NCBI GenBank assembly: GCA_964016885.1
Contig: OZ024743.1
Span: 157,046,001-157,110,000 of the forward strand
Direction of reading: 5' to 3'
DNA from: Eledone cirrhosa
Lineage: Eukaryota
DNA: 64,000 nt
A program made the position numbers and the translations under genes. Of this stretch, positions 1 to 35,610 are shown in pieces (position 1 is the stretch's first letter; each line of letters begins with the position of its first letter). The notes below the pieces were generated by a model, which was not told the origin of the DNA, made no database searches, and worked only from the letters and a program-made list of their open reading frames with translations.

Positions 1-204
1 TTGTGTTCCATAATTACATATTGTGTTTCAGGAATTCTGAGATCACAGGTGAGATTTTGAAGATGTCCAATGATCTCAGAATCCATGAGTGTGGTATGCT
101 GTCAAAGGGTTTTTATAATCGATCCATGCAGAACTGAGATTTCTGTGTTTATTATGACAGTTCTCAAGGATCATACGATTGATCAAAAGTTGATCTTTGC
201 AACC
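1..204 (-). pseudogene. R4/Dong-like non-LTR retrotransposon RT fragment (5'-truncated; continues beyond window start)
   Basis: Minus-strand translation GCKDQLLINRMILENCHNKHRNLSSAWIDYK/..FDSIPHSWILRSLDIFKISP (one frameshift) is homologous to the RT at 29369-29674. Its 5' junction abuts (ATT)n at 205-220. Confidence 0.8.
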
Positions 205-225
205 ATTATTATTATTATTAGCATT

Positions 226-1460
226 AATATTATTGGCGACCTACGTAGGGAATCGTATTATCGTGAGCTCCGCAAAGGTTTGTTGTTTTCAGTTGTTTCA
301 AATTGCCAGTTATGGAAACTTTTTGTTGTTAAGTGTTTATAGGTTCACATATACTGCTTTTTGAAAAGGACACTCAAATAGATTGGGGCCTTGAGCCCCA
401 AATTTTAATTTTTATAATTATCAAACAAAAACTTTCTTTTAAAAAAAATGGACGGCTCAACGCCATACGAAGCTGACACCCTTCCTCACAAACTAACACC
501 TCACAACAACACCACATTGTAAATATTACTACGGTTGCCAACACTAAAAATATAAGCGGTGTCAATAATTTAAATTTGTCTCATGCAGACATTCATTGCC
601 CGCCATTACAAATAACTGCAGGTTTTAAAGCCGCCACCCCCGCCACCACCACAGCGACAACAGAAACAACAACAAAACTTATTATCTCGTGACATCGAAA
701 TGGATTCAGCCGAACACCACTGACGCCACCACCACCACCACACCTGAAACTAAAAGTATAAATAACAAAAAAAAACAATAACAACAAAAGCAACAACAAC
801 AATAAGAATAACATCAACACCAGCGAAAAACAAAATGTGTCGCTTGCCAAAAACAGCCAAGAAAAACGAAACAATCGAGGTAAGCCAGGATTAATTAAAT
901 GTAGCCAAGCGAATGGTGAAAAAAGATGGGTACAATTTCAGGAGTTAAATTGCTAAGGGTATGGAAGAGCAGGCAGTTTTTATCTGTCTGGTGGCCATGG
1001 CGAAAGAGATAGTATTGTGGACGCGTTTGAAAGGGCTGAAGACGAGCACTTACTTCTTCGGTGATGCCCTAATTAACTTTTTCAAATTTCATTTGAAAAG
1101 GAAAATCAGGGTAAAGAGAGAAGTGCTCTCTTCCCAGCATTTTGTTGAAAGATCGGTGAGAGAGGCAAGAATGGCCCGAGTGAATGGGCCTACTCTGAGT
1201 ATGTGTCTGTAAATTAAAGGTGGAAAACTGGGAGAGGGCACTTGCCTGTGGCTTTTTTAATGGGCTTTCTCCACGAATGTCCCTCGGAAGTCTCCCACCT
1301 TTTGGGGGAATCTTTCATTGTTTCTTTTTTTGTTACATCCTCTGTTTTTTTTTATTTTTTATACGCAATTTCTTTTGTTTGTACCGTCTTGTATTGTCCT
1401 TAATGTCTTACTTTGTGTAAACCCTTGTGGTTAATAAAGAAAGCAGTATTATTATTTTTA
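226..1460 (+). mobile_element. Internally deleted Tx1-type LINE (5' UTR + ORF1 N-terminus joined to ORF2 C-terminus, 3' UTR and ATT tail)
   Basis: 961-1212 encodes EEQAVFICLVAMAKEIVLWTRLKGLKT...ARMARVNGPTL, matching the ORF2 C-terminus of the intact element. The 3' end cccttgtggttaataaagaaagc is followed by ATT repeats. An AAC-rich ORF1-like start lies at ATG 448. Confidence 0.75.
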
Positions 1461-1519
1461 TTTTCTTTCATTATTGTTTCTGAGATATATGCCGAGTGTC
1501 TTCCTGATACCTAGGGCAA

Positions 1520-1559
<40 letters not shown>

Positions 1560-1780
1560 TTTATTATTGTTGTTGGTGAAGACACGCTTCTTATCGCCTC
1601 CAGTTTTGTTTCAACGTGTTACCTCATTTTCAACCGTTCTAAACCTTTTATTCAAGTTTTAAATTTGATAAAATTTAGAAGAAGTGACCCACCTAAGACA
1701 GGGGTTCACTCGTAAATAAAACGGCACCCTTAACGGGGTGTCGTATTTGTGTAAAAATATTTTTTGAAACAAATTTCAAC

Positions 1781-3836
1781 ATGGATAACACAAGAAAGAG
1801 AGAGAGCGCTGTCAGACAACAGAGAGAGAGGGGGAGACTTTATCAGCATGTCAACAAGACAGCGTTCCAGCGGAGGTAAATATAAACGAAAATATTACAA
1901 ATGAGAAGAGGATTGTTACAGATTTAAAATTAACAAATATTTCTAACACAAACAACACCAACAACAACACCAACAATAAAACCAACAACAACACCATCAA
2001 TAACAACAGCAACAACAAAAATAACAGCGGTAAAGTCGAGAACGACAATAACAATGACAATAACAACAGCCACAACAACAATAATAGTAGGAACAGTATC
2101 AACAAAAACAACAATAATAACAACAGCCACAATAACAGTAACAACAGCAACAGTATCAACGAAAACAACAACACCAACACCTGTTCCAACGAAATCATCA
2201 ACAATGATATCGATACCTGTAACAGCGATGTCAGCACCACCAGTAAGACCAGTAGCGGCAGCAATAGTGGTGCTGCTGAAAAAGGGACCACTTTTTTCGC
2301 CTGAAATATCGAGACAGTGTTAGTCACAGAGGAGGAGATGGCAGTCGCAAGGGCCATGGTGACAAGAAGCACCAATAGAGTCTCCCTAAAACCTCCACCC
2401 GAATTTTTCAAGGGCCAGCAGCTACGGACGGTGACTTACCGCACCGTAAGCAAAATCTGACATCGGGTGGAGAGAGCCACGGAGGCTCAAATCCAAAAGG
2501 CCTTGGCGTGCGTCTGGGCACGCAAAACGCACATCACCGGAAGCAGAAAGTACGCCACAGTAGACGTACTTTTCGCCACCCCCCAGGAATCAAAGTCTCA
2601 CTCTTTGGAAAAGCTAAAGAGTGAGGAGATAATCTCGGTGCCCTCCTACTGCGGGAAGAAAATTGTGAGGGTCAAAGTGACCCAGGTACCACCCGACGTG
2701 CCCATACCTTGGCTGGCCGCGTCTGTCCTTGCTGGAATCGAGAACAGGACGACCATGCTGCAATTAGAGAAAATAGGGAGAGAGAACTGGTCAGGTATAG
2801 GCATGCAAATGCTTATACAAACTGACCAGGAATGTATTGACGCTATCCCCGATATCATAGACATCGACGAAGGACTCCAACTCCCTATAAGTGTAGAAGG
2901 AAGACGGCCAAAATGTTATCTCTGTGGGTCGAAGGGTCACCTCAGGGCCTTTTGCCCACAGAAGACAGCGAAGAAGAAGGCTCCTCTCCTTCCAATACCT
3001 GGTCCGATGCTACCAAGAGCAGGGCAGGCAACAAACGCAGAAGCCCCTTCCAGGGTGAGTAAGAGGGCACGTCCGTGGCACCCGTAAAGAGGCCACGGAC
3101 AACTAAAGCAACAGCATCAGTGGCGGCAACACCAGTAGCTACATTTGAAGTAGCTACACCAGCAACAACATTGCCGAAGAGGGCTCCACTACCACCACCA
3201 ACAGCCGTGGAGCACATACCCCTCCCAGACGCTACGGAATCCGATATGGAGTTTGTGACGGGAGTGAAGTTGCAAACGGTCTGCCACAAAAAACAAAAAA
3301 ACAAAAAAAACCTTAGATTCACCATCCAAAAGCGAAGGCACACAAATAGGCTAAAGGCAGCAAGGAAACTTGCAGCAACCCGACCACCATCACCATCAGC
3401 ACCACAAGCACCACCGCCAATAACAACTACACCTCCACCAGCATCACCAAAAACACCAACAACGCAAACAAAACAAAACACACACACCAAACAGCAACAA
3501 GAAGAAAACAGCAAGAAAATCACCCCTCCCCCCCAAAAAAGTTCACAGCCATAACCATGGCAAAAAAAGAACTCATACAATATATAAAGCAGCACACAGA
3601 CATCACAGAAAAAGCTACTGCACCCCACCATACTATGAACTCTCCCGACAAACATAAGCATCATTGAAATCTCAATAGAACAATACAAAACTTTAAAACA
3701 AAAATTACCCAACGCAGTTGGAGACTTCAGGTGGTCTGTTACCAAGAGGATATACACTGACATCCTCTTGGAAACACCCATGACCAGCGAAAGGGACGGT
3801 TCTACTGTCCCTTCACCACACGATCAAGGTAAGTGA
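1781..3836 (+). pseudogene. Tx1 ORF1 (gag-like) pseudogene
   Basis: Asn-rich N-terminus, EGRRPKCYLCGSKGHLRAFCPQ zinc knuckle (ORF 2467-3087) and a Pro/Thr-rich linker; interrupted by stops and frameshifts. Confidence 0.8.
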
Positions 3837-3868
3837 CCCTTTCTCACTTGCCCCGTTTCTCATCCAAC

Positions 3869-6800
3869 ATGGCCGTACTCAAAATAGGCAGTATAAATGC
3901 ACGGGGCCTGGGGTCATCTTGGAAGCAGGATCACCTGCTCAACGACCTCAGGTTACTAAACATAGATGTGGTGGCCATCAGTGTGACCAGAATCTCAGAA
4001 GCACAAGCCTTCACACCGCCCTCGGCGGCTACGATGTATACGCCTCTCCGAGCCTTCCAGGATCGGGGAGAGGGGTTGCCATCCATTCTTGGAGTGGCTT
4101 GGGTCTCGCCATACGAGCCATCTTCCTAGATCCAGAAGGTAAGTCGGTGATGCTGGACGTGAGCGGCAGCGAAGGCAATGCTTTCAGGCTAGTAGCCGTC
4201 TACGCCCCAACAGGGGCAGGATGGCCAGATTTCTTCAGACGTCTAGAGACCTTTCTTGGAACGTCCCGCTCTTTAGTGTTAGTGGGCGACTGGAACAGTA
4301 TCTTCGATGCACGCTGGGATTGTGTGGGGCTAGTGGATAGGGGAGCAGGGTCCAAGAGCCTCACCAACCTGCTCAGACGTTTTGAACTGTCTGACAGGTA
4401 TCGACTGGATCACCCAAATGTACCAATGTTGGCATGGAAAAACCGCATCGGGTCATCCAGATCGTATCTCGATAGGGTATTCTGCAGAGAACTATATGAG
4501 GCTAGTATAAGTTGTCCACAATTTAAAATAGTCGACTACACACACCACAAATTTGTGATCTGTGAAATTGACATAGACAGACTTCATAGACAAGGGTCCG
4601 GTTACAGGAAGCTGAACGCGTCTTTCCCGGCGCGCAAAGCCTACAGAGACCGGATTACCGTATTAGTTAAGATGGCGTTGACGGGTGCGGTCTTCAATAA
4701 CGGGTGGTGGTTCGCCCTGAAAAGGGCAATTAAAGTAGAGTCGATTAGGTTTAGCAAAGGACTAGTGATAGAGGAAAATAGAGTAGAGGGGGAGCTAGTC
4801 AGAAAGCTAGAAGAGGCGTTTAGGACAGGCATGGCAACCGACGTGCTTGCGGCGAGATTGGCACTCGACCAATTCCTCAACGCAAAACACGAAGGCTGAG
4901 TTGTCAGAGATAGAGCGCGTGCTCTGAAACACGTGAGGACAATAGCCGTCCAATGGGCCCGGGTGACAGAGGCGCGACGTGGCAACAAAGCCACATTTCG
5001 GTCTTTGTCTGACCAAAACGGGTGCGTGTTGTTCGAACCCGAGCAGATGTGTGAAGCTTTTCAACAGCACTTTTCAGCAGCACATTTTCAACTGTTCGGG
5101 AGCAGCGGCGGCCCGGATCGGGGCATGGACTTCAGTGCATACCTCGACGGACTGCCTCGGCTCTCGACGACCGCAGCACAGTGTTGCGAAAAGCCAATAA
5201 CAGCCGGTGGAATACGGGAAGCGATGGCTAACTGTATGAGGGGTAAATCGCCAGGTTTGGATGATCTGCCCTACGAGCTTTATGCATTTATGCCAGACTT
5301 GTTCGGTGATCTCTTGGCAGACGTCTACTGCAACTGGCAGCAGAACGGGAGCATTCCCATTTTTGTGAGCCGGGGAGCGGTGGCGCTGCTCAGAAAAGAC
5401 CCGAACAAGTTCAAGCTTTTGGCCAAGGTGTTAGCAACGAGGTTGGCGCTTATCGTCAATGGTCTGGTGGGAGGGCGCAGAAATGCGCCATTCCGGACAG
5501 AACCACACACGACAACCTCCACCTCATGCGATACATCATAGAGAGGGTGGTTAAGGAACCTGGTACTGTTGTGGCCCTGATCAACTTGGATGAATCCAAA
5601 GCATTCGATAGGGTCGACCATGGTACCTGGCGGTGGTCCTCGAGGCAGCCGTTTACGGGCCCGTTTTCAGCGGTTAGATCGCTGCGATGTACAGCGACAT
5701 CTGCTCATTTGTGAGGGTGAACGGTCACCTGTTGCAGCCGTTCAGCAGCATGCGCTCAGTCCGCCAGGATTGCCCCCTCTCGTCCATCTTGTACGTATTG
5801 GCTCTCGAGCCGTTACTGCACAAATTGGGGGCGATGAGGGGCGTCCCATGCGAACCAGGATGCGGGAAATCCGAGTCGGCTTACGCCGACGACGTGACCG
5901 TGGTGGTGTCCAGCACCAGATACGTCCAGATGCTCGGCATCGCTCTCAAGGAATACGAAGCGGTGACAAGAGCAAAGATAAACCCGGAAAAGTCGGTGGG
6001 CTTGTAGCTCGGCACCTGGAGAGGCAAGTCCATGCTATCCAACAGCGTCGTGGGGCGTTGGACGGACGGACCGGTTAAATTTCTCGGGGTCTGGTTCGAA
6101 CCGGACCTCCAGATGGAGAAAAAACTGGAACAAGATGACGAGCAAGGTGGCCTCCTTCACCCAAAAATGAGCCGAGAGGAAGCTGTCCCGGGCGGAGGTG
6201 GCGAATGCTTACATCGCATCCGTCATCTGCTACCGCCTCACTGTCGTCCCTTGCCCCGGCCCAACTCTCACCAAAATGTAGCGCCTCCTCTTCCTCTTTC
6301 TGTGGAAGAGACCGCTCCCATGGTCAGACGATCCATCTGCTGTCAACACCCGTTCCGTGGAGGATTGGGCATGCCATGACTGATGATGCGCAAATATGCG
6401 CTGAGGCTGCCACATCTCTGGTACTTCCTCGACGGTGATCAGGCGTGGTCGCTGTTCGCCAGGCACGTTTTCCCACAGGTCGTCTCCTTGACGGAGCTGC
6501 CATCCTCTGTCAGAAAAATACCGAGGGATAGCGCTTGGAAACTGGAATGTCTCCAGGCGCTCACTGCCCTCTGCCAGCTTAGAGGACTAGTGGAGGGGAA
6601 GAGCGACGACGTTCTCGAAGAGATCCTGGGCGTCGAAGAAGATCAGCTGTTTGCTCACTTCCGGGGAACTTTCAGCCCAGGGCCTATGGATAACTTCCAA
6701 AAATCCCTGGCATGGGAGCGTTCGAGATAAGTTCTACAGGCACGGAAGTGCCGTCAGCCGAGCCTGTCCGAGATCTCGCAGAGCGACGAAACCGTCGTGC

Positions 6801-7165
6801 ACGCACTCGTTCAGTGCCCGAGCATTGTGGAGCTATGTCGAACAGTTGCTGTCGCATGTAGGACTTATCCGGTTATCGACTGAGTCCATTGAGCAGATGG
6901 TCTCGCCGTCTTCCTTCGAGGAGGAAGGGCAGGCGGTTTTCATCTGCCTGATTGCGAAAGAAATTGTGTGGTGGACAAGGTTGAAAGGGTTAAAGACAGA
7001 CACATTCCTCTTCGGCGAATCCCTAATTAATTTTTTCAGGTTTCCCTTGAAGAGGAAAATCAGGGTGGAGAGGCAAATGCTGCCTTCTAGCAGTTTGTTA
7101 AAAGGTGGGTAAATGTAGCGAGAATGGTCCGAGTGAACGGGACCGCTCTGAATATACGTCTGTAG
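3869..7165 (+). pseudogene. Tx1 ORF2 (APE + RT) pseudogene
   Basis: MAVLKIGSINARGL, VYAP, GDWN, SYLDR, KSPGLD, SKAFDRVDH, SVRQDCPLS and YADD motifs spread over several frameshifted ORFs. Confidence 0.9.
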
Positions 7166-7480
7166 TTTTAGAAATGGAAAAATTGAGAGAGGGCGCTTGC
7201 CCTGGTGGTCAGGGTAGCCGTGGTCTTTTGTGTGGTTTTCGCCACGAGTAACCCTCGGAGGTTTCCCCCCAATTGTGGAATTTTTCATTGTTTCAATTTT
7301 CATTTTTATTGTTTATATATATATATGTTTCTATGTCCTTTTTTTCTTTTCTTATATAAATACTAAAAATATTTACACGCACAAAACCCACATCGTACCG
7401 TCCTGTACCGTCCTGTGCCGTCTGTAATGTTTTTCTTGATGTCAGCCCTTGTGGCCAATAAAGAAATCATTATTATTATT

Positions 7481-7821
7481 CTTTTTGTTGAAAGATGGGT
7501 GAGAGAGGCAAGAATGGCCCGAGTGAGTGGACCTACCCTGCCTGTAAATTGAAGGTGGAAAACTGGGATAGGACAATTGCCCTGGTGGTCAGGGTCACCG
7601 TGGCTTTTTAATGGGCTTTCTCCACGATGGCCCTCGCAAGTCTCCCCCTTATTGGGGAATTTTTTCATTGTTCTATTATTACATCCTCTGTTTTTTTTTG
7701 GTTTTTTACACGCAGAAATGCCCTTTTGTACCGTCCTGTATTGTCCTGTACTGTCCTTAATATCTACTTTGTGTAAACACTTATGGGTAATAAAGAAAGC
7801 ATTATTATTATTATTATTATT
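7481..7821 (+). mobile_element. Short 5'-truncated Tx1 copy (3' end only) inserted at the previous copy's ATT tail
   Basis: Last ORF2 codons (FVERWVREARMARVSGPTL), 3' UTR, AATAAA and (ATT)7. Closest in sequence to the 3' end at 1141-1450. Confidence 0.85.
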
Positions 7822-8030
7822 CTTTGAAGCGAAAAGACCTAATATTGTGAGCTCGCGTAATTTTGTTATTTCAACATGTTTCAATTTTTTGTTGTTAATA
7901 TTTTTTTGTTTCGAAAGGAGCATAAGACGTTGGTCTTCAAGAATGGACTCCCCATATTATGTGTGCCTTGGTCCCAAATATCTTAACTTTATACATATAG
8001 TAGACCACCCGTGACCTATTGGTTCACGTT
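7822..8030 (+). mobile_element. Probable Tx1 5' UTR remnant following the ATT tail
   Basis: tattgtgagctcgcgtaattttgttatttcaacatgtttcaatt resembles tatcgtgagctccgcaaaggtttgttgttttcagttgtttcaaatt at about 259-304. Confidence 0.45.
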
Positions 8031-8417
8031 TACTTCAAAATATATTTTTTTAAAATCATGTTCACTTAAAAATAATGTTTAAATAATTAAAATATACACA
8101 AGGATGTATATAATGAGAAATTGAAACTGGAAGGCTTATATATATATATATACGTGTGTATACGTATATATATATACGTGTGTATACGTATATATATATG
8201 TAAATATGATAATAATGGAGCTGCGGCGTTGCAAATGGGTTACATATGAAAAAGTTTGTCCTTCATCAGTGGCCTTCCAACCGTCGTAGGCATTTCGTCG
8301 CTTTAAAGGCCATATACCTCAGGTTGGTGCGAGCAACGGCTAAAAAAAGTCGTTGGGACACGTAAATAAAGGGGACGCTAGGGTAAACAAACAAAATGGT
8401 TTAAGCAACAGAAAGTG

Positions 8418-8418
<1 letters not shown>

Positions 8419-8498
<80 letters not shown>

Positions 8499-8790
8499 GG
8501 GTGTGTTTGTATATATATATATATGTTTGTGTGTGTATATATATATGTGTGTATGTCTGTGATCTATATACACTGGGTATAGACATACACACATACACAC
8601 ACACATATATATATATATATACATGCATACACACATTCACATTTATATATACACAAAAACAACACCAGCTCTCTCTCACTTCCATTCTCCTTCTCTGTCT
8701 TCTCCTCCTCTCTCTATGTCTCTCTTTCAAACTGCTTCCTCACAACCACTATCTCTTTCTCTCTATCCTTCTCTCTGTCTCTCTCTCTGT
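8419..8790. repeat. (TA)n / (CA)n / (TC)n microsatellite block
   Basis: Direct reading. Confidence 0.95.
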
Positions 8791-9278
8791 TTATGAAGGT
8801 ACCCAGAAAAACCCATATATCGGGAACCCGGGCTTCGATTTACGTGAGACTTGTTTTATTCCATTTGTTTTTCCATTTCAGGGGCAACTGCCTTTCAGGG
8901 TCGACTGTCTTTTCCCATTTGGCTGTATTACATTACAGACAAGCAAGCAAGTTATCACAGACTTTTAGAAATATATATATACACACAGTTCAAGAGTAAA
9001 CCAATCCTAAATAGACAGATGGAGATAGGAGAGAAGAGGAGAGGTTGGGGAAGGTGTTAGAAGCCAAAAGCGTAAAGGCATGTGCTCAATGTGCAATATG
9101 CAGTGGGTGGCAGCTAGAGAACTGGGTTAATGCACAGAGCTGGAAATATTCGTTACTTAAGCAAAACAAGACCTCAAAATTCATATGGAAGACGTTAGTT
9201 AAAGAGTGTCAACATAGTTGCAGTTTAATGTAAGGAATAAAGAGTGTACATTAATTGTAGTTTAATGTAAGGAATAAT

Positions 9279-9463
9279 TGTTTCTACTTTAGGCACAAGG
9301 CCAGCAAATTACCCAGTGCATTACTGGTACTTTATTTTATCGACCCCGTAAGGATGAAAGGCAAAGTCAACCTCGGCGGGATTTGAACTCAGATCGTAAA
9401 GGGACGTAACTATGCTGGAAAGCATGGCGTCCGACCTTCTACCGATACTGCCAATCCACCGCC
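9279..9463 (-). mobile_element. tRNA-derived SINE (family 1), full length, 15-bp TSD
   Basis: The minus strand has a box A-like TGGCAGTATCGG, box B GAGTTCAAATCC, a central gcctttcatccttacggggtcgataaaat (Meta-domain-like from memory) and tail gaaacaATTATT. TSD aatgtaaggaataat at 9264-9278 and 9464-9478. Confidence 0.85.
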
Positions 9464-9674
9464 AATGTAAGGAATAATGATGTCCGTTTACAATTGTTTC
9501 GCTACTCCATATAATGTTTCTGGATCAATTGATTATTAGATCGTTATTTATATGGTTCAGAGGAAGGTAAGTAAATTAAGTAATGTCATGGAGCAGTTCT
9601 TCGGAATGTCAGATGAGATAATGAAAATATTGATATAGATAAGACGGAATAAGAAATATATATATATATATATA

Positions 9675-11955
9675 TTGTTATACTTTGGGAGGGTCGTGTT
9701 GCCAATAAGAAACACATGCACCAGCTGCTTTCACTTCAATTTATTATAATAACTTTATAAATTTAGGAATTTATAAATTTGCGGTTGGTTCGCAACCATA
9801 TGATTGTTTATATATATATATTGTCAAAGTTCTTTCGTCACACATTCTGTGACCTCTTCAGTGACTGGGGATTCTTTTCTTTGTTTTTGTGCCTCTCCTT
9901 TGTTCTGTCCTACGCCATCTTGTTTGTGTGTGTGTCTTGTGTGCTTAGTTTGCGCATGTGTTACATCCGGGTGTCAGTGAGTGTTTATATTCGTTTAATT
10001 ATTTGTTTATTTACATGTTACCGGTTGGTTGTTTGTTCTATGTGCGTGGTTGTGTTCATTTTGTCCTTAATTGTAAGTTGTGTTGTTGCTGTTCCACTCG
10101 TGTTTTCTATTTAATTTTGGTTGGAGTTCATTTATGTTTATTGCCTATGTGATTTGTCTAAACATTGCGTCTTTTCTGTGTGTAGATTCTATTTTTATTT
10201 CTATGTTCTCTAATTTACCCTTATGTTCTATTTTAGCATGTTGGTAGAGTACAGATAATTCTTTACTATCTTGACGGTCTCGCCAGTGTTCATTTATCCG
10301 TTCCCCTATACTACGAGCTGTCTCACCTATGTACACTATATTTTTATCTTTACATAGTCCTTCAGTACCTCTTATGCTATATACTACATTTCTAGTTTTA
10401 CCGTTAATATGGGGGCTTAATTTACAGATTATACATTACTTATCTATACAGGGAGGTCTTTGAAAAGGGTATGTATTGCTAATAAGTATTTTTATGGAGG
10501 TACCTGGTCTTTCTACTATCTTAATATTGAGTTTATGTTGATCTAGGGCCCTTCTAAATTTGTAAGCCAATTCACCTCTCGGGGTTGTATCGATGAACAT
10601 TACACTCTGGTATTTATTGCTATCATACCATGAGTTTATTCTATTAGTCTTATTCCTAGTTCTTTATATTCTATTCCAAAATTTGCTCCTATACAAGGGG
10701 CAGGTCCAATTTGTGTCATTATTTACCATTTGTTCCCATTTGGTTCTGGCTCCTCTATACACTCTGATTTTATCTCTCTGATTGTAGCCAGAGAACTGCA
10801 TACGGTGGATGAAGTGTTGTATGTGTCTCTCTAGTTCTTTGGGGTTGCACATGCGGGACGCGTTTCTCATCACCCGTATCAAATCCGCAATCAGTATGTT
10901 GATTTTGGTATGGTCCGAAACAGCTGAGTTTCGGTGGATCAGATATTTGGAAGTCATGGGTTTGGCATAATGGGAATGGAGGATTTGTTTTTTGTTATTA
11001 ATGGTATCTAACCATAGCTCTGTGTCTAGTACGGGTAATGGATGGTTGGGGTGTTTGATTGGGTAGTCTATAGTAACTCTAATACTCTGGTGGATGGAGT
11101 TAGCTATTTGCTGGTTGCTTTCCATTGTGTTTTTCTCTAATTCCTGACTGTTCTCTAGTGGGGGTGTTTTAACTACGATGTTTATATCATCAACGTAGCG
11201 GAGTACATAATCAGGGTTAAGGGGTCTTCTAATTGTTCTTTAAGTTTAAGTTTAAGTCTACTGACCCACCATACCATGAATAGGTTAGCTATGTCGCCTG
11301 CAATGCTAACACCAATGGCTGCTCCCTCCGCTCGGGCATATATTTTTCCATTAAATTTGAACATATGTTATTTAAGGGTTAATTTTATGCTGGCCCCCAC
11401 CGCATGTGCGATCATTTTCTTTAGTTCATCGTTGTTTTCGGGGGTCTGTATGGTTCTGGTGCACCCGTTCCATCTATATGTGTGGGTTTTCTTGGCCATT
11501 GAGGTAATGGTAGGTGGTCTGCCTCTTGCTGGTCTAGTAGGGCACAGGTTGCTAAGGCCATATGTATCTAGATAATTATTACTATAGGAAAGTTTAAGTA
11601 GGAGTCCCAGCTCACTTCTATCAACCCCACAGAATTCAACATTGCTCTCACTGATCATTATTAAGCATTTCTCCACAGCAAAATCCACGTCAATAAATGG
11701 ATACAGGGACACAACATCCATACTACCTATTATGCAGTTTGTTAGGTCCCTAGGTCGGTTACTCTCGCCGATTCTGCTGAGGAGGTCCTCCGTGCTGTCA
11801 CATATATCTGGGGACATTTCAATGATGGGGCGTATGATCAGGGAGAGGAAGTATGAACATCTGTAGTTGCTAGCAATGCTAGCTCCACAGACTGGCCGTG
11901 TTGGTGGTCCTGAGACAGGGTCCCTGCTCGTTTTATGGTCTTTTCGAAGACCATA
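9675..11955 (-). mobile_element. Penelope-like element (RT + C-terminal GIY-YIG), 5'-truncated and degenerate
   Basis: RT motifs RPVCG, SMDVVSLYP, FKFNGKIY..EGAAIG and LPVLDTELW; GIY-YIG NVVY..YIGETARSIGERINEH; 3' pseudo-LTR with a hammerhead motif, ending at (TA)n. Confidence 0.88.
9823..9865 (-). ncRNA. Minimal type I hammerhead ribozyme motif in the PLE pseudo-LTR
   Basis: Minus strand GUCA CUGAAGA G GUCACA gaaug UGUGAC GAAA GAAC UU UGAC: 4-bp stem I, 6-bp stem II, minimal stem III, CUU triplet. Confidence 0.7.
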
Positions 11956-12755
11956 AAGAATTAAGTCATCAAGAAATACATAAGCATAACGCAATACAAG
12001 AAATAACTAAGATCACCACACCAAGAGAAAAATTAATATTTATAAACCTTAATATTTATAAACCAACCGGAAATTTATAAATTCCTAAATTTATATATTT
12101 ATTATAATAAATTGAAGTGAAAGCAACTGGTGCGTGTGTTTCTTATTGGCAACATGACCCTCCCAAAGTATAACAATATCGGTTTCAACACACGTTTTCA
12201 GATAAAGAATCTTGCTAAACAAATTAGCCAGGCTAACAAGATACTGAAAACCACCATGTTCTGTTGTCTACGAAAAACAATAAAAATCTCGACAACTACA
12301 CTTCATAAAAGAATGTGCCTCGTCACGAGATTACACCAACACCAGCAACACCGATGTAAGATTACAGCTCACCAAAAAGGAAGCAGATAGGCTAAAACGA
12401 ACACTAAGTCCTAAACATAAAAAAGAAGATTTATAGAAAATTAAGTCATCAAGAAAAACATAAGCGTAACCTAATACAAGAAATAACTAAGCTCACCACA
12501 CCAAGAGAAAAATTAATATTTATAAACCTTATATATCCTGAAGAAAAGTACATTGTTCAATAATGTGACAAGCACTTTAACAAGAAACTAAATGTCGTGG
12601 AACCAACCAACCGGAAATTTATAAATTTAATATAATAAATTGAAGTGAAAGCATGGTGTGTGTGTTTTTTATTGGCAACATGACCCTCCCAAAATATAAC
12701 AATATCGGTTTCAACACACGTTTTCAGATAAAGAATCTTGCTAAACAAATTCAGA
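11956..12755 (+). mobile_element. Partial tandem (about 1.5 units) of a small PLE-related pseudo-LTR element, inverted relative to the adjacent PLE
   Basis: 11960-12050 repeats at 12440-12530, and 12061-12225 repeats at 12605-12751. 12061-12176 is the reverse complement of 9675-9790. Confidence 0.65.
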
Positions 12756-12759
12756 AACG

Positions 12760-12800
<41 letters not shown>

Positions 12801-12803
<3 letters not shown>

Positions 12804-14002
12804 GGTGCCGTGAGTAGTTGAGGACAGATTTATGGTTTTAACAACACGGTTATATAATAACAGAAAAAAACTGTATTCTTATAAAAATAACATAAACATA
12901 AAACTAAGTTATCAATTTAATTTCATTCAATAATAAAACCATACGCATCAATAACTGCCTCTACGCGGTGTCGAAATTCTTTACAAGCTTGGATTAAGTG
13001 GTCCTTGTTCATATCGGACAGACTCGAACTATTGCGGCTTTCAAAGAATCGTTGGTGCTATGGAGGTGTTCATTGACATTTTTCTCAACAATGCTCCATA
13101 CAGTGGATTGAGATCTGGAGAATTAGTAGGCCATGTGTTGGGGATAATCTGATCATGCAATTTTATGGCCATCCATTTTGTGTCCTTTGAACCTTGCGTG
13201 AAGGTGCAGCATCTTGTTGAAAGACATAGGGCCTTCCATAGCATACACTGGTCCAAGGCTTAACAACTTTATCCAGAACCTCAATATACGCAGCAGCATT
13301 CACCCTAAGGCCTTGTGGTAAAAAGTGAAGATGATCATATGTCCTTCATTGCTAACAATACCCTAAGCCATGACACTTGCAGGAAGTTTGCTGTGCATTA
13401 CTTTTGGAACCTCAGAAGGGTCTGCACGTAGCCACCTGTCATTTCTTCTGTTAGTTTTCCGATCCTGGCCAAAGTTTTTCTCATTTGAGACAAACCAAAT
13501 CACACTATCTTCTGAGTGAGTTTGAAGTTTGTTCAAAAGTATTTTGGATCTGATTAAACGGTTTCCTTTTATTTTGTTCTGACATGAATTGACCTCTCCT
13601 CATCACGTAAGATTTGTATCTGATGTCTTCATGCACAACATTTCTTATTGTTTTTTCTGACACACCAACTTTTTTTGCAATTGACCTCATTGATTTTCCT
13701 GGATTGTTATCAGTGTTTTGCTTAACTTTCTGAATAAATTCACGTGTCCTGATTGAATCAGAGCATTTAGAATGTTTTGTACGTTTTGATATAGGTAGTA
13801 CGCTTTCATCTTCTTTCTCTAAGTCACACCGAATCTTGTGGATAAAAGATCTTGCAGCTTTCAGAAAACGAGAAATTTCTAAATCGCCATGCCTCAATGA
13901 CAACATACATTTTCATTTCATTAGTAAGCATAGTTATTTTCATTGAAATAGAAGTTCAATAACAATTGACTAAAAATGCATGTGTTCTCAAATACCGTCC
14001 GC
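12801..14002 (-). mobile_element. Decayed Tc1/mariner-superfamily DNA transposon
   Basis: HTH region NPGKSMRSIAKKVGVSEKTIRNVVHEDIRYKSY (13505-13906) and WPTNSPDLNPL (13041-13256). One end is CAGGGTG next to (TA)n; the other TIR is eroded. Confidence 0.85.
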
Positions 14003-14011
14003 ATATATATA

Positions 14012-14590
14012 GGAACGAGTAGGACCCCGACGGCTGAGCTCAATCCGTTTCGACGGCTAATTCTGGACTAAATTAAAATGTTTATCCTGGTACATGAATA
14101 GTCGAGCTTCTCAGGGGTTAATTCCATATATGGTAAAAGTGAGTGTCACAAGGATTGGTCAAAAGTTTGTTGTTGAGACAAATAATTCTATCATGGCAAG
14201 TTGTGGAAGGAAGGGGTAGCTGAACTTGCCAGTAGAAGAAAGAGGGAGAGGGAGTCGTGCGCTGATAGTGCCAACTACAGCCGGATCCTAAGTGTAGGAG
14301 GTCAAGAAAGTATACTACGGAGGCGGAGGGGGGGGGGGTCGAAACGATAGGTAAATCAATATGGAGTAAAAATATAGAAGGATAATAAGAATGTTAAAAA
14401 TATGAAAAAAAATATAAAAAAACAATTTCTGATTACTATTCCCCTACCACCATCATCAAGTCTCTCACTGGTACTGCCAAACTATAGAGAAGTTTAATTG
14501 GTGAGGCGGAATTGTAGTGAAAGTATTTTATGAGTTAGTAGTAATCATCCGAATCTATCTTTCAGTGACAGGTCAACAAGTAGGGGGCCA
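14012..14590 (-). mobile_element. (TA)n-bounded element with degenerate hammerhead-like motif; probable solo PLE pseudo-LTR
   Basis: Minus strand acccCUGA-GAAG...GUC GAAAC GG-auugagcucag-CC GUC ggggu at 14024-14118; flanked by TA runs. Confidence 0.4.
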
Positions 14591-14591
14591 A

Positions 14592-14697
<106 letters not shown>

Positions 14698-14699
14698 AA

Positions 14700-17600
14700 G
14701 TTTTTTGTCTTATAAAACATGGACGAATACGCCCCCTCCCGTTATGTCAGCTGTCAAATGACATGGACTAAAACGTCGAGCGATGTAATGCTGCCCCCTC
14801 TCCCGATAACCATCATTACAAACACTAACACCACAGTAGGCGGTATCGCCAATAGCAGCACCAACAACAAAAGCAAAATAAATGAGAGTAAGAACCGGAA
14901 TAATGACAACACCAACAACAATAACGGCGAGAAAGCAGATGAGAACAATAACGACAACACCTGCATTAATAATAACAACACCAGCAAGAATGACAACACT
15001 AACAACAACAACAAAGATAACGACGACAAAAAACAACAATAATTGCACAAAGAAAACTAACTGCAACAGTGACAACAAGAACAACACCAACAACAACGAC
15101 AACACCAATAACAACAACGACATTAACAACAACAACATCACCAACAACAATGTGACCAGCAACAGAACCGGTAACAGCAACACGGACAACAAGAACACTT
15201 TCGCTGTTTCAGCATCCAAAAAGAGGCCGTTTCTCACCATGGAACTCAGTAAAAAAGATAAAATTTGGCCTAGGCCTGAAAGCTCATTAGACAAGTTCAA
15301 ACCTGTGCCAGACTAACTGTCCCGGTTGAAGTCGCAGGAGTGGTGGAGAATGGCGTACGTTTGATGCATTTCAGTGTAGAATAAAAGCGGCAATTATTCC
15401 ACAAGCCGAAATTGAACATGCGCTAAGGTGCGTTAGGGATGACACCGAGTAGATAGCAAAGGACAGACACTACGGCACCATCTCGGTGCTGTATAAGTCA
15501 GAAACTCTCGCTGTGAAACACGCACTGCCCATTTACAAAACCAGCAAAATAATTAATTACCCCTCCTACATGGGAAAAAGTACAGAAAGAGTCCGCATTG
15601 CGGGGATTTTCCCAGGAATAGATTTGTGGTGGCTTCTGAGATGCGTTATTGTAGAGGGGCCAGATGCCATCCTGATCAGGTAACGGGAACAACCAGGGAG
15701 AACTGCTCCGGGGTTGGCATGGACATACCTCTCCACATCAGGCCTGAAGACTTGAGAAAAATCCCGGACCACATCCGTCTCCAAACCGGGACGGTTCTGC
15801 ACGTAATGAGCGAGCCTTCTGAACTCATCTGAAAAATGCTGACACCACACACACAACAAACATTTCCACAACGCCAACACCACTACCACCAACAATACCA
15901 CGAAGATCCACCAAACGCAAACACCTACAACAAACAAAAGAAAAGCTAACAATAATATGATGGCCCTGATAAGACGAAGGCAAGAAATAGAAAGACATTA
16001 GAGAGAACTTTCCTCGAGACGTGGGAACCCCGAATATGAAACCATCCTTAATTCTGTTAAAAGTGTTCCCAAATGAAAACAACCAATTATGGGTATCGAA
16101 CCTCCCAGCCTCCACAACCCCCGGGAGAAAGTAAACCCTTGCTCTCTCTACTTTAGCTAGCCAGCATGGCAATCCTAACAGTAGGATATATAAATGTTCA
16201 TGGCATTGGGTCGTCATGGATGCAGGGTAGCCTATTCAACGACTTCACCTCGCTAGATATGCATGTAATTCCGTCAGCGAGACCAACATATCCGGCACGC
16301 ACGCATTAGCCCCCATTTTCAACGAGAATCAGATTTTCGCAACTCTTAGTAGGTCGGAAATGGGAGATGCGGTGGCAGTGCTCTTTAGGAAAGGCCTGAA
16401 TCTCAAGGTATGTTCGATCTTCCGGAGCCAGGGTGGTAATTTGGTGTTCCTTGAAGTGAAAAATAGTGAAGGTGGTGACTTTAGACTAGTGGCCGTCAAC
16501 GCCTCTACGGGTTTTGGATTTCTTTCGGTGCCTGGAAGCCTTTCTGGGAATGTCTCACCCTTTACTATTGGCGAGGGAATGGAACGGCATCTTAGACGCA
16601 CGCCAGGATTATCTGGGAGAAGCTGACAGGACCAAAAGTTTCATGTACCTGTTCCGCTAGTTGCAACTGTCTGACAGGTACCGACAAGATTTCCCTAATG
16701 CGCCAGGATGGACATGGACCTACCGCATAGGTTCATATAGATTAGTTCATATGGATTAGTTTTTCATTAGGACAATAGATAACAATAATAGAGGTTGTCC
16801 ACACTTTCAAACGATCGCCTATTCAGAACACAAATTTGTGATCTCTATGGTTGACCTAGATAAGACACTCATGTTAAGACCTGATTACTGAAAGCTAAAA
16901 ATGTCGTTTCCTGCACGTAAGGTTTACAGGAACTAGGTCAACAATTTAGTTAAGCAAAAGTTAACAGGTGGGCCGTCATCAATAATATGTGGTGGAGCTC
17001 TCAAAAGAGTGATTAGATTAATTGAGATGCATTTTAGCAAAGAAGTAGCGTTGGAGAAATTAGAAAGGAGGGAAGCTGGTAATTAAATTAGACGAGGCAA
17101 TTTGTACTGACATTAGACCATTTCTTCAATGCGAAACACGAAAGATGCATTGTCAGAGCTAATGCGCGTGCTCCGAGACATGAGGCAACCAAAGCTGTTC
17201 TATGGGTCCGCGTGGCAGAGGCGCAATGTGGTAACCATACTACAATTTGAACTTTGACGGACCGCGACGGACGCGAGCTGAAGGATTCCAGACAGAAACG
17301 TGAGACCTTTCGGAAGCACTTTTCTAGGCTCTTGGAGTAGGGAGTGGTGCTTTGGAGACGGTGGAGAACTTCAATCCCTAACGCGTCTCTCCACAGCGGA
17401 TTCTGAACTCTGCGATAGGCCGATAACTTCAGCGGAGATGCGGATGCTTTAGTCATACGGTTTGGATGGTCTGTTCTTCGAGCTTTTTGTTCTGTCTCCT
17501 CGAAGTAACTGGCAACTGGCAACAGAACTGAAGCATTCCCACTTCTGTGAGCCGGTGCGTAGTGAGGCTGATAAGGAAAGACGAGATACGTTTGAGAACT

Positions 17601-19150
17601 TCAGGTCCATGACTCTGCTGAATACAGAGTTTAAAATAATGGCCATAGTGTTAGCGAAGAGATTGGCGCTTGCGGTCGAGAACTTGGTAGGCTCAAATTT
17701 GCGCAATCCGGACCAGGTCCATACAAGACAACCTCCAACTCATGCGATACATCGTAGTTAGGGTAGTATATATACTTGGCATTGGTGCAGCTCAAATCAA
17801 TTTAGATCAATCTAAAACTATTGATGTGGTCAATCATCGATACCTGTAGGCTGTTCGGAAAGGAGCTGGCTTCGGTAACATCTTCAGAGTCTGAATCGCT
17901 GCAAGGGGCAGGGGTATCTGCTCGGGGGTCACAGTTAATCACCACCTCTCGGAACATTTTCAGATATCCCGATCGGTCGGTCAACGGTGCCCCCCATCTT
18001 CACTTCTATACATATTAAAACTCACGTCTTTACTGCGGAAGCTAGACCTGTTGCAGGGCATCCTGCTTGAACCCGGATATGGAAAGGCTGTGTACACGTA
18101 TGCAGATGACATCACCGTGATGGTGTCGAAGACCTCGGAAATCAAGGTGGTCGACACCTTCTTCTCGACAATGAACAGATGTGGTCACCGTTTTCTAGAC
18201 ACGTTTCTCCCCAGGTCGTCTCCTTGGTGGAGTTGCATCCTGGGTCAAACGAAGTCCGAGGGTGTGCGCTTGGAGACTGGAATGTCTTCAGGCGCTCACA
18301 GCCCTCGTCTAGTTGGGCGATGTGATCGGTGAAAACTCCACTGGGTGTCGACGAAAGCCAACTAGCTGTTTACATCGGGTGGACTTTCGGTCCAGGTTCA
18401 ATGGACAGCTTCCAGTAGTCCCTGGCTTGGCAGTGTTACATGGGAGCTTTGCCAGTTCGAGATAAACTTTACAGGCATGGAAGTGCCGTTCAGTCGGGCC
18501 TGTCTGAGATGCGCTTCGGGCGACGAGACCATCCTGCCCGCACTCGTCCAGTGTCCGAGCATCGCTGACTTGTAGGTTTATGTCGCTTTTCGGTGTAGGA
18601 CCGATCCGGCTATCAGCTGAGTTTATCGTCAAGATTGCCTCGCCTCCGTCCTTTAAAGAGGAGGGTTAGGCAGTATTTAGCTGCCTGGTGGCTATGGTAA
18701 ATGAGGACATAGGGTGGACCCGTTTGAAAGGATTAAAGACGGACACTTTCCTCTTCGGTGACGCCCTCATTAAAATTTCCAGGTTTTACTTGAAAAGGAA
18801 AATCAGGGTGGAGAGGGAAGTTTTGCCTTCCAACTAGTTTGTTGAAAGCAGGGTGAGAGAGGCAACAATGGCCCGTGTGAATGGGCCGGCTCTGAACGTG
18901 CGCTGTAGTATCGTAGGAGGAACACTTGGAGAAGGCGCTTGCTCTGGCGGTCAGAGTGATCGTGGCTTTTTGTGGGCTTTCTTCAAGTGCGACCCTCGGT
19001 AGTCTCCCCCAATTGGGGAATTTTCCTTTGTTTTTTTGTTTTTTGTTGTTACTTCCTTTATTATTGTTTTTTTTTCCTTTCATGCAGAAATGCCCATATG
19101 TACCGTCCTGTGCTGTTTTTAATGTTATAATATGTACCATTATCATTATT
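14700..19150 (+). mobile_element. Heavily decayed Tx1-type LINE related to the array element
   Basis: ORF1 remnant NKNTFAVSASKKRPF / YPSYMGK / IPDHIRLQ parallels the intact ORF1. ORF2 starts at gccagcATGGC (about 16166), with NFRSMTLLNTEFK and YADD. 3' UTR and ATT-like tail near 19140-19150. Confidence 0.88.
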
Positions 19151-25997: not shown

Positions 25998-26252
25998 TGT
26001 TTCTACTTTAGGCTCAAGGCCAGCAATTAACCAGTGCATTACTGGTACTTTATTTTATCGACCCCGTAAGGATGAAAGGCAAAGTCAACCTCGGCGGGAT
26101 TTGAACTCAGATCGTAAAGGGACGTAACTATACATTAAGAAATAATTGTTTCTACGTTTGGCACAAGGCCAGCAAATACCCAGTGCATTACTGGTACTTT
26201 ATTTTATCGACTCCGTAAGGATGAAAGGCAAAGTTAACCGCGGCGAGATTTT
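25998..26252 (-). mobile_element. Two 5'-truncated SINE family 1 copies (25998-26129, 26147-26252) with a triplicated 17-bp TSD
   Basis: atacattaagaaataat occurs at 25981-25997, 26130-26146 and 26253-26269. Confidence 0.85.
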
Positions 26253-27904: not shown

Positions 27905-27940
27905 TAATAACGATTTCTTTATTGGCCACAAGGGCCGAGA
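27905..27940 (-). mobile_element. Tiny Tx1 3'-end fragment
   Basis: Minus strand ggcccttgtggccaataaagaaatcgttatta matches the Tx1 3' terminus. Confidence 0.65.
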
Positions 27941-28639: not shown

Positions 28640-29335
28640 ACACCTTCTTTAAGAAGGAATGCTAATGGCTTCACAAGAGCAGGGCCTCAGAATGAAATGG
28701 GTGAATAAACATATTGCCAAGAAGGAGGGTATCTCACTCTGTAGGATCTGTGGAGAGAGAGAGAGATGAATGTGGCTACATCGTATCTGAGTGTAAACAC
28801 CTAACCCAGGCTCATTATAAAGGATGGAAGCATGACATAATAGGAAAGATGATTCGCCAGAATTTATGCAAACTGAATAATTTACCACATTATGAGAAGT
28901 GGTATGAGCATAAGCCAGAGTCGGTGATAGAAAACGATCAGGTGAAGGTGCTATGGGAATTTAGGATACAGACGGACAAAAATTAGAACACAATAGGCCT
29001 GACCAGGTGGTATTGGACAAGGAAAAAAGATCGTGCCTGATTGTAGATGTAGCCTGCCCCTTTGACACAAGAGTACTAGAAAAGTAGAAGGAGAAAATTA
29101 ACCGATAACATGATTTAAATGGGAGTTAATAAGGATTTGGGACTGTCATGAGATCAAGATCATCCCAATTGTTTTAGGAGCACTAGGTACTATCTCAAAG
29201 GGTTTTCAAGGATGGTTACAGAACATTAGTCCAGCCCCCTTTTTTGGAACGCTTCAAAACACATGCTTGCTGGGAACATCAAGAACCCTCCAATACGTCC
29301 GGAATATCTGAGGATGCAGGTAGCGGCTTGATGTA
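28640..29335 (+). pseudogene. R4/Dong-like C-terminal fragment (zinc-knuckle remnant + restriction-like endonuclease)
   Basis: CRIC..E..YIVSECKHL..HY..KHD, WYEHKPESVIENDQVKVLWEFRIQTD, HNRPD, DVACPFD, IPIVLGALG. Confidence 0.8.
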
Positions 29336-29339
29336 CATT

Positions 29340-31448
29340 TGAACAAACTTTCCAGTTAAATAGTATCAATGACTGAGACTCAAAAAACAATAATACTGAT
29401 AACAAATGATCTATCTCGCAAGAAGCAGAAGGACTGTAAGCGAAGCTCATCTGGCTGTAAGGATCAGCTTTCGATTAACAAAATGATACTGGAAGATTGT
29501 CATAATAGTCACAAAAATCTATCAATTGCTTGGATAGATTACAAAAAAGCATTTGATAGTTTGCCACACAGTTGGATTGAAAAGTATTTAGAGATTTTCA
29601 AAATATCTCCCTTGTGTCGGGAGGTTCCTGTCATTCAGTATGAAAACCTGGAAAACGTCACTCCTTTTGAATAGTAAAAGGAAATCACCGGAAGCTGGAG
29701 AAGTTAATATTAAATGTGGAATTTTTCAGGGTGACCCTTTATCACAGCTTTTATCCTGCATCAAATTTATACCATTAAGTAAAATGCTCAATGAAACAAA
29801 ACATGGATATAAAGTCTATGACAAAACCATTAATCACTTGTTCTACATGGATGACCTGAAACTATTTGCAAAAACTGATGGGCAATAGCAAGGGCTACTA
29901 TCCACTGTGAAGCAGTTCAGAGATGATATTAAAATGGAGTTTGGACTACATACATGCGCCAAAGCCATGTTTACCAGAGAAAAGCTGCTGAGAAGTTCAG
30001 GCATTAATCTTGGTCGGGGGAATGTGATAAGAGAAGTGGATCAAGAGGAAACTTACAAATATCTAGGTGTTTTGTGAAGGAGGCGGAATAAAGTGAAAGG
30101 ATAAGGAAGGAATGTTACCGCAGAGTAAGGGAGTTGAATGTAAGGAATAGGATCGATGCCATAAAAACACTTACCATACCAGTAGTAACTTATAGTTTCA
30201 ATGTCATCAAATGGTCAAGCACAGAGATCCGTGCACAGAATGCATAACCCTAAGGCAGATACATGTTAAATATATCTACCTGGGAAAGATGGAGGACGTG
30301 GATTAATCCAGATAGATATTGCTTTGAAAACTGCAACAATTAAATTATCTACATATCTAAGGGAGGCATATCATTGGATGATCAAACTCGTTTTGAAACT
30401 TGAAAGCATCAAAAGATCATACTCCATTACAAAAGATGCACAAAGATACATTAATGAGCTACAAATTTCAGAAGTTCCTTTTACTGCTGGAATGAAAAAT
30501 ACAGAAAAATCAAAGCAGGTAAAAGTAACTGCAAAGAAAGAACTGCTAAGAAACTGGCTAAGAAATGGCAAGTGAAGCCTCTGGATTGAAAATACCCAGA
30601 AAGGGCTAACAATCCTGATGTTGACAAAGTTTTAGTCCATCCTCTGGACTGAAATTGGAGACTGAAGGACTGATTATATCTGCACAAAATCAGTGTCTGC
30701 CAACAAAAAATTATCAAACCATCATAATAAAAAATGGATGCAACCCATTATGCCGTGTATGTAAAAAACAACCAGAGACCATTGATCATATAATTTCAAT
30801 GTGCAGTCCTATAGCTCCAACCGAATACCCAAACAGGCACAGCAGAGCTGCACAATATATACACTGGGTAATGTGTTAGCATTTTGACCTGTCCCGTCAA
30901 AAGAATTGGTGGGAGCATCAACCACCTCTCGTACTTGAAAAAGATCACATCTCAATCTTGTGGAACTTTAGAATCAAAACAGACTGAAAAATAAATGCAA
31001 ATAGACGTGATAAAATAACTGAAAGATTTAAAAGGCGTCTATGCCGGCTAATTGATATGTCCGTTACAACAGACACGAATGTACCTATAAAAACATTTGA
31101 AAAATAGAGCAAGTATAAAGATCGGGAGATAGAGATTCGAAAATGTGGAAGTTGAGAACTAAAACAATACCAGTGGTTGTAGGCGCCCTAGAAATGATAC
31201 CTAAGGGGTTAATGATTACTTATCCCAAATCCCAGAAAACCCGCGTACAGTAGAAGTACAAAAGATAGTACTAATGGGAACTGCCCATATACTAAGGAAG
31301 TACATCACAGGTCTAAATATCTAAAGATACATGTATGTGTGTATGGGTTCTTTCTTGAACATAGCGGAGCTTGTTGTCTCTTGAGGTCACTGTTGTGATT
31401 TAGTGATAACACGTATGAACATAAAGACATTTAAATGAATTAATAATA
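29340..31448 (+). mobile_element. 5'-truncated degenerate R4/Dong-like LINE (RT, CCHC, RLE) ending in a TAA-rich tail
   Basis: GCKDQL, AWIDYKKAFDSLPHSW, GIFQGD, FYMDDLK, ETEGLIISAQ, CRVCKKQPETIDHIISMC, IPVVVGAL; 3' end ..gaattaataataa. Confidence 0.88.
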
Positions 31449-31449
31449 A

Positions 31450-31742: not shown

Positions 31743-31743
31743 A

Positions 31744-35582: not shown

Positions 35583-35610
35583 AATATTTGGGCCTTTTGG
35601 CCCAAATATT
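35583..35610 (+). promoter_or_regulatory. Perfect 12-bp 5' UTR hairpin (present in all four copies)
   Basis: aatatttgggcc-tttt-ggcccaaatatt, 46 nt upstream of the ORF1 ATG. Confidence 0.6.

Follow-up and report, generated by a model that had tools for sequence, protein, structure and literature searches.

A plus-strand stack of L1/Tx1-type LINE copies in Eledone cirrhosa, probably built by repeated insertion at a short ATT motif

Stacked LINE copies in the window

A stretch of 64,000 nucleotides from Eledone cirrhosa (assembly GCA_964016885.1, contig OZ024743.1, positions 157,046,001 to 157,110,000), here called the window, holds copies of an L1/Tx1-type long interspersed nuclear element (LINE) that follow one another on the plus strand, separated by ATT tracts (Table 1). 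Coordinates are window positions 1-64,000, and all counts of junctions, orientations and loci come from this window alone. A first-pass annotation had described such a series at 205-8030, and sequence reading together with self-comparison bears it out. The deleted copy placed at 226-1460 is our copy A (~235-1444), which runs from its 5' untranslated region (UTR) and the start of open reading frame (ORF) 1 through a large internal deletion near 960 into the end of ORF2 and the 3' UTR. The full-length divergent copy placed at 1575-7480 is B (1575-7468), the 340-bp truncated copy at 7481-7821 is C (7485-7800), and the 5' UTR-like remnant behind (ATT)7 is D, from 7826. Because CTTT stands after both (ATT)4 and (ATT)7, a perfect 16-bp target-site duplication, (ATT)4CTTT, can be recognized around C; it starts inside the ATT tract and ends 4 nt past it. 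For the 5' UTR of D, homology with the 5' UTRs of A and the young copy Y1 is clear (none of 300 shuffles attains either score), while homology with that of B is not (18 of 300 as high). D stops at about position 421 of A, and E resumes at about 428-430. Because E picks up the coordinates of A where D leaves off, in the same orientation, D and E are likely one full-length copy, D/E, split by 6.7 kb of nested later insertions.

Does each copy sit at the ATT tract of its predecessor, as had been proposed? B, C and D do share ATT of a single locus, whereas A and B are separated by two tracts and a spacer of ~70 bp. The repeat listing gives (TTA)14.7 at 1525-1568 on the plus strand. The spacer (1457-1526) is not clearly family sequence; its best score, 32 in one of eight comparisons, barely exceeds the highest shuffle score (31). 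Its origin as the 3' end of a Dong-like LINE was rejected, since 226 of 1000 shuffles score equally high; the flank behind E gave 42 of 1000, one of six tests.

Table 1. Features of the window, by position
Feature	Position	Strand	Basis
5'-truncated fragment of a different, older restriction-like-endonuclease LINE	1-204	-	66% over 189 nt to 29468-29656, E 5.7e-15
(ATT)n tract, 5' junction of A	205-234	+	repeat listing, junction inspection
Copy A, A/C subfamily	235-1444 (approx.)	+	self-comparison
Short ATT tract behind A, then ~70 bp spacer (1457-1526)	1445-1526	none	sequence
(ATT)11 and degenerate units, 5' junction of B	1527-1574	+	repeat listing
Copy B, full-length, decayed, own 5' UTR, subfamily as F	1575-7468	+	self-comparison, 3'-region tree
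Left target-site duplication copy of C, (ATT)4CTTT	7469-7484	+	junction alignment
Copy C, 5'-truncated, 3' end only	7485-7800	+	homology
(ATT)7CTTT; right duplication copy of C at 7810-7825	7801-7825	+	junction alignment
D, 5' UTR, likely head of split copy D/E	7826-7998	+	shuffle-tested homology
Later-insertion block separating D from E: (TA)n tracts, SINE copy, further frames	7999-14699	none	self-comparison
SINE copy, perfect 15-bp duplication starting ATTATT	9279-9463	-	duplication alignment
Copy E, starting shortly upstream of the ORF1 ATG, 3' end damaged, the most decayed of the stack	14700-19118	+	homology, decay counts
Two differently truncated SINE copies, head to tail	25998-26251	-	duplication alignment
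G, 26-bp LINE 3' stub, decayed possible duplication	27912-27937	-	homology
Mixed stack: LINE F, (ATT)11, truncated SINE (31742-31657), (ATT)5, full SINE (31633-31451)	31451-33939	-	homology and junctions
Young array: four near-identical full-length copies separated by (ATT)5-6	35447-58808	+	self-comparison
SINE copy, 11-bp duplication starting ATTATT, one mismatch	59429-59608	+	duplication alignment
SINE copy, imperfect duplication starting ATTATTG	60400-60579	-	junction inspection
SINE copy, short duplication starting ATTATCT	61594-61776	-	junction inspection

The members differ in subfamily, length and decay, as first described, with 3'-region identities of 71-83% and differing 5' UTRs. A and C are 83% identical in the shared 3' region, B and the minus-strand copy F 94%, and A and B, like B and C, 71%; all older copies are 59-63% identical to the young copy (Y), and the tree of this region is (Y,(B,F),(E,(A,C))). 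Unequal crossing-over is excluded for the stack because its members are only 70-83% alike and have different 5' ends. The first-pass annotation had taken the stack as independent support for targeting; its exclusion of crossing-over stands, while B, C and D are one locus and not independent of each other.

In what order did the copies arrive? E carries 15 stops and 25 frameshifts in 879 codons (17 and 28 per 1000 codons) and is about three times as decayed as B, with 6 and 11 in 1084 codons (5.5 and 10 per 1000), or F (3.3 and 11.5 per 1000). Because D/E is the most decayed member and B the least, and terminal branches shorten from E (0.19) through C (0.08) to B (0.03), with A at 0.10, D/E likely came first, then C, then B, each inserting before the head of the older copy, so that the stack would have grown towards its 5' side; the tail-after-tail order that the first-pass annotation implied is likely wrong. 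A possible 22-nt duplication for B, running into the head of C with 19 of 22 matches, is a hint that B inserted after C. Set against this order, the terminal branches include pre-insertion divergence, the duplication around C does not by itself fix the order of B and C and also allows B before C, and no CTTT partner for D is seen at the 3' end of E, where the terminal motif is missing.

The minus strand carries a second, mixed stack. Clear homology of LINE F spans 33904-31776; the copy is 5'-truncated and has GTT(ATT)3 upstream, so that the upstream ATT is not part of the element's head. A duplication ending in CCTT was considered for F and rejected, because its 3' 'flank' is the truncated copy of a short interspersed nuclear element (SINE). 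We infer that this stack grew in both directions. Other copies had also been said to end in ATT, which holds for the minus-strand copy at 31776-33904; the stub at 27912-27937 ends only in GTTATT.

What kind of LINE is this? Both ORFs are open in three of the four young copies, Y4 having a frameshift in ORF1, and the copies lie 1-20 substitutions apart (Y2 against Y3, 1; Y4, 17-20). The young ORF2 encodes 1139 amino acids with an apurinic/apyrimidinic (APE) endonuclease (PF03372), a reverse transcriptase (RT; PF00078) and a C-terminal zf-RVT domain (PF13966), all above Pfam cut-offs. ORF1 has no Pfam match and shows a visible CCHC motif; its Atlas look-alikes, at 0.89-0.92, carry zf-CCHC or ZCCHC3 RNA-binding families, which is a lead only. 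An ORF2 profile built from 12 relatives finds human L1 ORF2p at E 3.5e-110 against E 2e-39 or weaker for R2 proteins, with no CR1, RTE or I-type proteins among its matches. The family thus combines an ORF2 with APE, RT and zinc finger that is closer to L1 than to R2 with the truncations and duplications that are hallmarks of the L1 group: C, F and G are 5'-truncated, and C has its 16-bp duplication. The closest named relative is a protein of the cuttlefish Acanthosepion pharaonis (53% identity), whose lineage groups with the family at 100/98 in a 25-row tree that contains no named Tx1 element. Scored against L1, LTx and LR1 chimeras, the endonuclease does not clearly favour any of them. The 'Tx1' label would fit the domain layout and the insertion behaviour.

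None of the nine LINE 3' ends found has a poly(A); ATT stands at the 3' junctions instead. In the reads of one sample, contigs of the young subfamily reach a depth of ~2,100 against 11-15 for unique flanks, which suggests ~150-190 near-identical young copies in organism A; in organism B the depth of the young-subfamily contig is like that of single-copy DNA. The LINE 3' motif had no match in assembled genome contigs or viral contigs. A metagenome scan for relatives returned at least 80 loci, mostly 23-35% identical. Among the best 30 of 80, none has the stem-loop or an ATT tail after ORF2, one has a poly(A) and one a short AAT run; these 3'-end negatives say little about the family's range because many loci stop short of the 3' end.

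Insertion sites and a SINE with the same terminus

Target-primed reverse transcription leaves the genomic copy of the target-site duplication upstream of the insertion. In the window, duplications are ~11-18 bp long and their upstream copy starts with ATTAT. Because that copy is genomic, ATTAT was present before insertion. ATT at 3' ends, in turn, is no test of targeting, because it is expected of every copy. The first-pass argument for repeated strand-specific insertion at ATT was weaker than claimed in this respect, and its conclusion holds within the window: the real support lies in the upstream, genomic duplication copies of C, of the 5'-truncated F and of the SINE copies, which show that a short motif suffices. 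The target is ATTAT(T), not only long microsatellites.

The first-pass annotation had proposed counting ATT at sense-strand 5' junctions and comparing the orientation of neighbouring copies, and in the window both counts agree with it. Each locus was counted once, by its outermost 5' junction, which gave 10 independent LINE or SINE loci. ATTATT stands upstream on the sense strand within 22 nt at eight of the 10 (F and G miss) and within 45 nt at nine (G misses), window sizes that were picked after seeing the data; AATAAT, the opposite polarity, is upstream of none. Background rates for ATTATT are 1.6% (22 nt) and 3.6% (45 nt), or 3.8% and 7.2% at AT-rich positions, and 0.15% of background positions have (ATT)3 in the 45 nt before them. 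The enrichment at the junctions has a binomial p <1e-8 even with rates set above the AT-rich background. For the LINE loci alone, (ATT)3 occurs within 40 nt at four of five against 0.13% of the background. One criterion for Tx1 families is that more than 20% of flanks are of one type (PMC4494074); in the window the fraction is 4/5 for LINE loci and 8/10 for LINE and SINE loci together. Neighbours less than 131 bp apart share orientation in 9/9 pairs (6/6 without the young array), and distant pairs do so in 5/7; the SINE nested in D/E in opposite orientation was excluded from these counts.

The partner in these counts is a SINE of ~185 bp with eight copies in the window and tRNA-type A and B boxes, read by eye; ARAGORN reported no tRNA genes. 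Four copies have perfect duplications of 15-18 bp, three of which start with ATTATT and the fourth with TTATTATT inside an ATT tract. Three further copies have shorter or imperfect duplications starting ATTAT, and one lies in pure ATT. The SINE dimer at 25998-26251 holds three occurrences of one 17-bp duplication, which begins with ATTATT, around two copies truncated at different points. Beside the copy at 9279, positions 9200-9277 hold a 37-bp tandem duplication that contains part of the SINE's duplicated target. Inverted similar pieces (61538-61904 and 63088-64000; 93-95% over 40 and 104 nt) surround the copy at 61594, and a frame between them (62424-63077) has no Pfam match.

Could the pattern have arisen with no targeting at all, copies gathering in a repeat-rich, selection-free region, their tails growing by slippage, and recombination or mis-assembly joining them? 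The window is indeed full of repeats and microsatellites, the four young copies are similar enough to stem from unequal exchange, and the continuity of 1-8030 is taken from the assembly. Slippage and joining would hardly leave perfect 15-18 bp duplications with unique sequence behind ATTATT, or different truncation points inside one duplicated site; moreover, the opposite polarity is absent at all 10 loci and the older members are 70-83% alike with different 5' UTRs. We regard this explanation as highly improbable.

Which enzyme moves the SINE? Compared with the last 25 nt of B, the SINE end matches at 15-16 of 25 positions, gapless at the terminus. Of the 11,713 other 25-mers in B, only 2-3 do as well. 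LINE and SINE ends share a stem-loop with the loop CTTGT, 16 nt before ATT. The stem that closes the loop varies: GGCC/GGCC in Y and G, AACC/GGTT in A and TGGC/GCCA in several SINEs. Across 12 distinct rows, three of its four pairs have changes on both sides, and 85% of the cells are paired, compared with 21-52% in slid controls. From these sequence features, the LINE's own ORF2 protein, or one from a sister subfamily, likely moves the SINE. MetaSINEs are marked by a 66-bp Meta domain after the tRNA head. A MetaSINE label was dropped for the present SINE, which shows no likeness by eye to the bivalve Meta sequences in the available part of the PMC4824008 supplement, where three of four SINE words are absent.

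Alternatively, the LINE prefers ATT while an unrelated LINE of RTE, CR1, L2 or Nimb type with a similar end moves the SINE, and the SINE sites are then uninformative. In favour of this, LINE and SINE have no more than ~25 nt of their ends in common, and their similarity is not significant when the ends are left unanchored. Partners of mollusc SINEs in PMC11481361 are CR1, CR1-Zenon, L2 and Nimb, and 'Tx1' is absent from its main text. The two ends, however, have the same loop, the same 16-nt distance to ATT, a covarying stem and the same start of the duplication, and the two elements occur in a common stack. The window's restriction-like-endonuclease LINE has AAT on its sense strand, which is the wrong polarity, and the ATT preference is already present at the LINE loci when these are taken alone. 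An unrelated mover seems to us rather unlikely.

Reads extend the picture beyond the window, as indirect genome-wide support for the SINE only. SINE head-to-tail joints occur in 3-nt steps, with 13, 36 and 18 contigs in X1 (67) and 12, 36 and 21 in X2 (69), X1 and X2 being the same sample. In X7, the loose ends pooled at the head of the SINE (29,382 reads) lie on one strand and are rich in A, at 19 of 23 letters. For the reads on 31400-41300, the inspection took in 15 joints out of 4,238 and 24 loose ends out of 15,133.

Proposed mechanism and known systems

We consider it probable that the stack is a pile of LINE copies of differing subfamilies and ages, inserted successively by an enzyme that cuts and primes at ATTAT and leaves the motif on both sides. 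The endonuclease would nick the AAT strand at about 5'-AATAAT/R-3'. Transcripts would read through the terminus into flanking ATT, and their AUUAUU would pair with the nicked primer; reverse transcription would start after binding of the stem-loop, and a second nick 11-18 nt downstream would give the duplication. The ORF2 protein, its own or that of a sister subfamily, would also mobilise the SINE. Each insertion would leave ATTAT on both sides and thereby re-create the target. With the motif on both sides, stacks can grow either way, and long (ATT)n tracts would be hot spots because they contain many ATTAT sites. The ATT 'tail' is mostly target sequence, because six of the eight SINEs have no intervening sequence and the LINE has no poly(A).

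Is the endonuclease needed to choose the site? In a variant of this model with the same stacking, the endonuclease would cut AT-rich DNA almost without specificity, leaving the pairing of the RNA's AUU end with the nicked primer as the only selector of the site. In six of eight SINE copies the duplication begins directly after the terminus, with an ATT match of only 5-7 nt that pairing alone could select, and priming by base-pairing has been described for L1 (PMC3812793). For Kibi and Koshi, on the other hand, the endonuclease is held to be the main determinant (PMC4494074). Moreover, the base before the duplication, which lies outside the primer, is C at four of five unique SINE sites and a pyrimidine at all five; small as this sample is, the C points weakly to an endonuclease specificity beyond pairing. 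Choice by pairing alone appears quite unlikely.

Several observations weigh against targeted insertion at ATTAT as set out here. F misses the motif test at 22 nt, its tract lying 35 nt from clear homology, and the 31-35 nt between (33905-33939, minus strand) are unexplained and match nothing elsewhere in the element or the window. G has no ATTAT in its 5' flank and misses the test at both window sizes. Unanchored local similarity between SINE and LINE is weak, an equally good score being reached by 17-67 of ~5,800 windows on each strand. At 4 bp the stem is short, its structure was picked out of the same sequences in which it was scored, and C, F and one SINE fold differently. The read data are swamped by high-copy SINEs, with no LINE 5' junction flanks among the joints inspected. 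Finally, the counts come from one window, and SINE loci, with their presumed link to the LINE, make up half of the 10.

How does targeted stacking at ATTAT compare with known systems? Kibi at (TC)n and Koshi at (TTC)n belong to the Tx1 clade and occur in teleost fish, and crocodilian Tx1 families occupy (TTCC)n/(TTTC)n (PMC4494074, PMC3812793). All of these, like the family here, are APE-type L1/Tx1-like LINEs inserted into microsatellites. The present target unit, in a cephalopod host, is ATT rather than (TC)n or (TTC)n, and a short ATTAT(T) is enough; the likeness is in how the elements work. The crocodilian Tx1-Mar likely mobilises SINEU, which shares its target, and tandem SINEU copies sandwich one duplication by sequential insertion (PMC4494074). 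Tx1-Mar differs in targeting a Mariner copy, the head of its SINE is derived from a small nuclear RNA (snRNA), and a LINE with the 3' end of SINEU-1 was not found there. By contrast, the SINE here has tRNA-type boxes and a terminal stem-loop in common with the LINE. Stringent SINE/LINE pairs include UnaL2, the CR1/L2 partners of bivalve SINEs and one plant L1 lineage (PMC3747384, PMC4824008). Their shared 3' end, stem-loop with compensatory changes and short-repeat end all appear to have counterparts in the sequences of the window. The differences are that the partner is an animal L1/Tx1-type element, that the shared part is only ~25 nt and that the end repeat is mostly target-derived.

Members of the Dong-R4 clade have a restriction-like endonuclease and carry TAA on the sense strand. 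Dong itself is a TAA-targeting LINE (PMC3812793) and so uses the same microsatellite class; in Octopus vulgaris, a table of recently active elements includes both Dong-R4 and L1-Tx1 (PMC13282606). The family described here differs from Dong-R4 in its APE endonuclease, in ATT on the sense strand and in the absence of AATAAT upstream at any of the 10 loci. The literature covered holds no ATT-targeting Tx1 family and no cephalopod Tx1-SINE pair; most subscription papers, Repbase and Dfam lay outside its scope, and the family may be catalogued there. The stack is best explained by insertion that prefers a site and regenerates it, in the manner of the microsatellite-targeting Tx1 elements above but with a motif that is new and a SINE as probable partner.

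Neighbouring repeats and biological meaning

Other elements share the window. The translation of the fragment at 1-204 has RT motifs, and its 5' junction lies at an (AAT)n, namely the tract at 205-234, in which A sits in the opposite orientation. A related copy at 28700-30700 (plus strand) has CCHC and PD..D motifs and AAT on the sense strand at its junctions, and its RT piece matches R2 proteins, not L1 (E 0.002-0.003). We tentatively take this LINE to be Dong/R4-like. Immediately behind the degenerate AAT tail of its 3' end stands a second, 5'-truncated copy; this LINE thus stacks as well, with opposite polarity on the same microsatellite class. The block at 7999-14699 contains a minus-strand RT-like frame pair (10664-12006), flanked by repeated pieces of 100-150 bp, and a transposase-like piece (~12800-14010) between (TA)n tracts; these are presumably Penelope-like and mariner-like, and the one frame of the block that was searched has no Pfam match. 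A second, unrelated high-copy tRNA-type SINE family is present at 34640-34785 (minus strand); its 3' end and duplication are not delimited, so it provides no control.

Microsatellite-targeting Tx1 elements and sequential stacking around a duplication are already known, and the stack alone is a modest addition. What is new is an ATT target unit kept across subfamilies ~30-40% apart in DNA and a candidate autonomous partner for a very abundant SINE. The pair would be a rare animal case of stringent stem-loop RNA recognition in the L1/Tx1 group and bears on whether such recognition is ancestral there. Since young copies are naturally intact and SINE junctions number in the thousands, it can be tested directly whether the endonuclease or RNA pairing chooses the site. 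Tentatively, and with slightly less than even confidence, we suggest a wider picture in which a cephalopod L1/Tx1-type lineage, with stringent stem-loop recognition and target-derived AUU priming at ATTAT, drives one of the most abundant tRNA SINEs of its genome, re-creates its own target with each insertion and shares TAA/TTA with a Dong-like LINE on the opposite strand. If this is true, a single enzyme would have a large part in shaping the ATT repeats and SINEs of these genomes.

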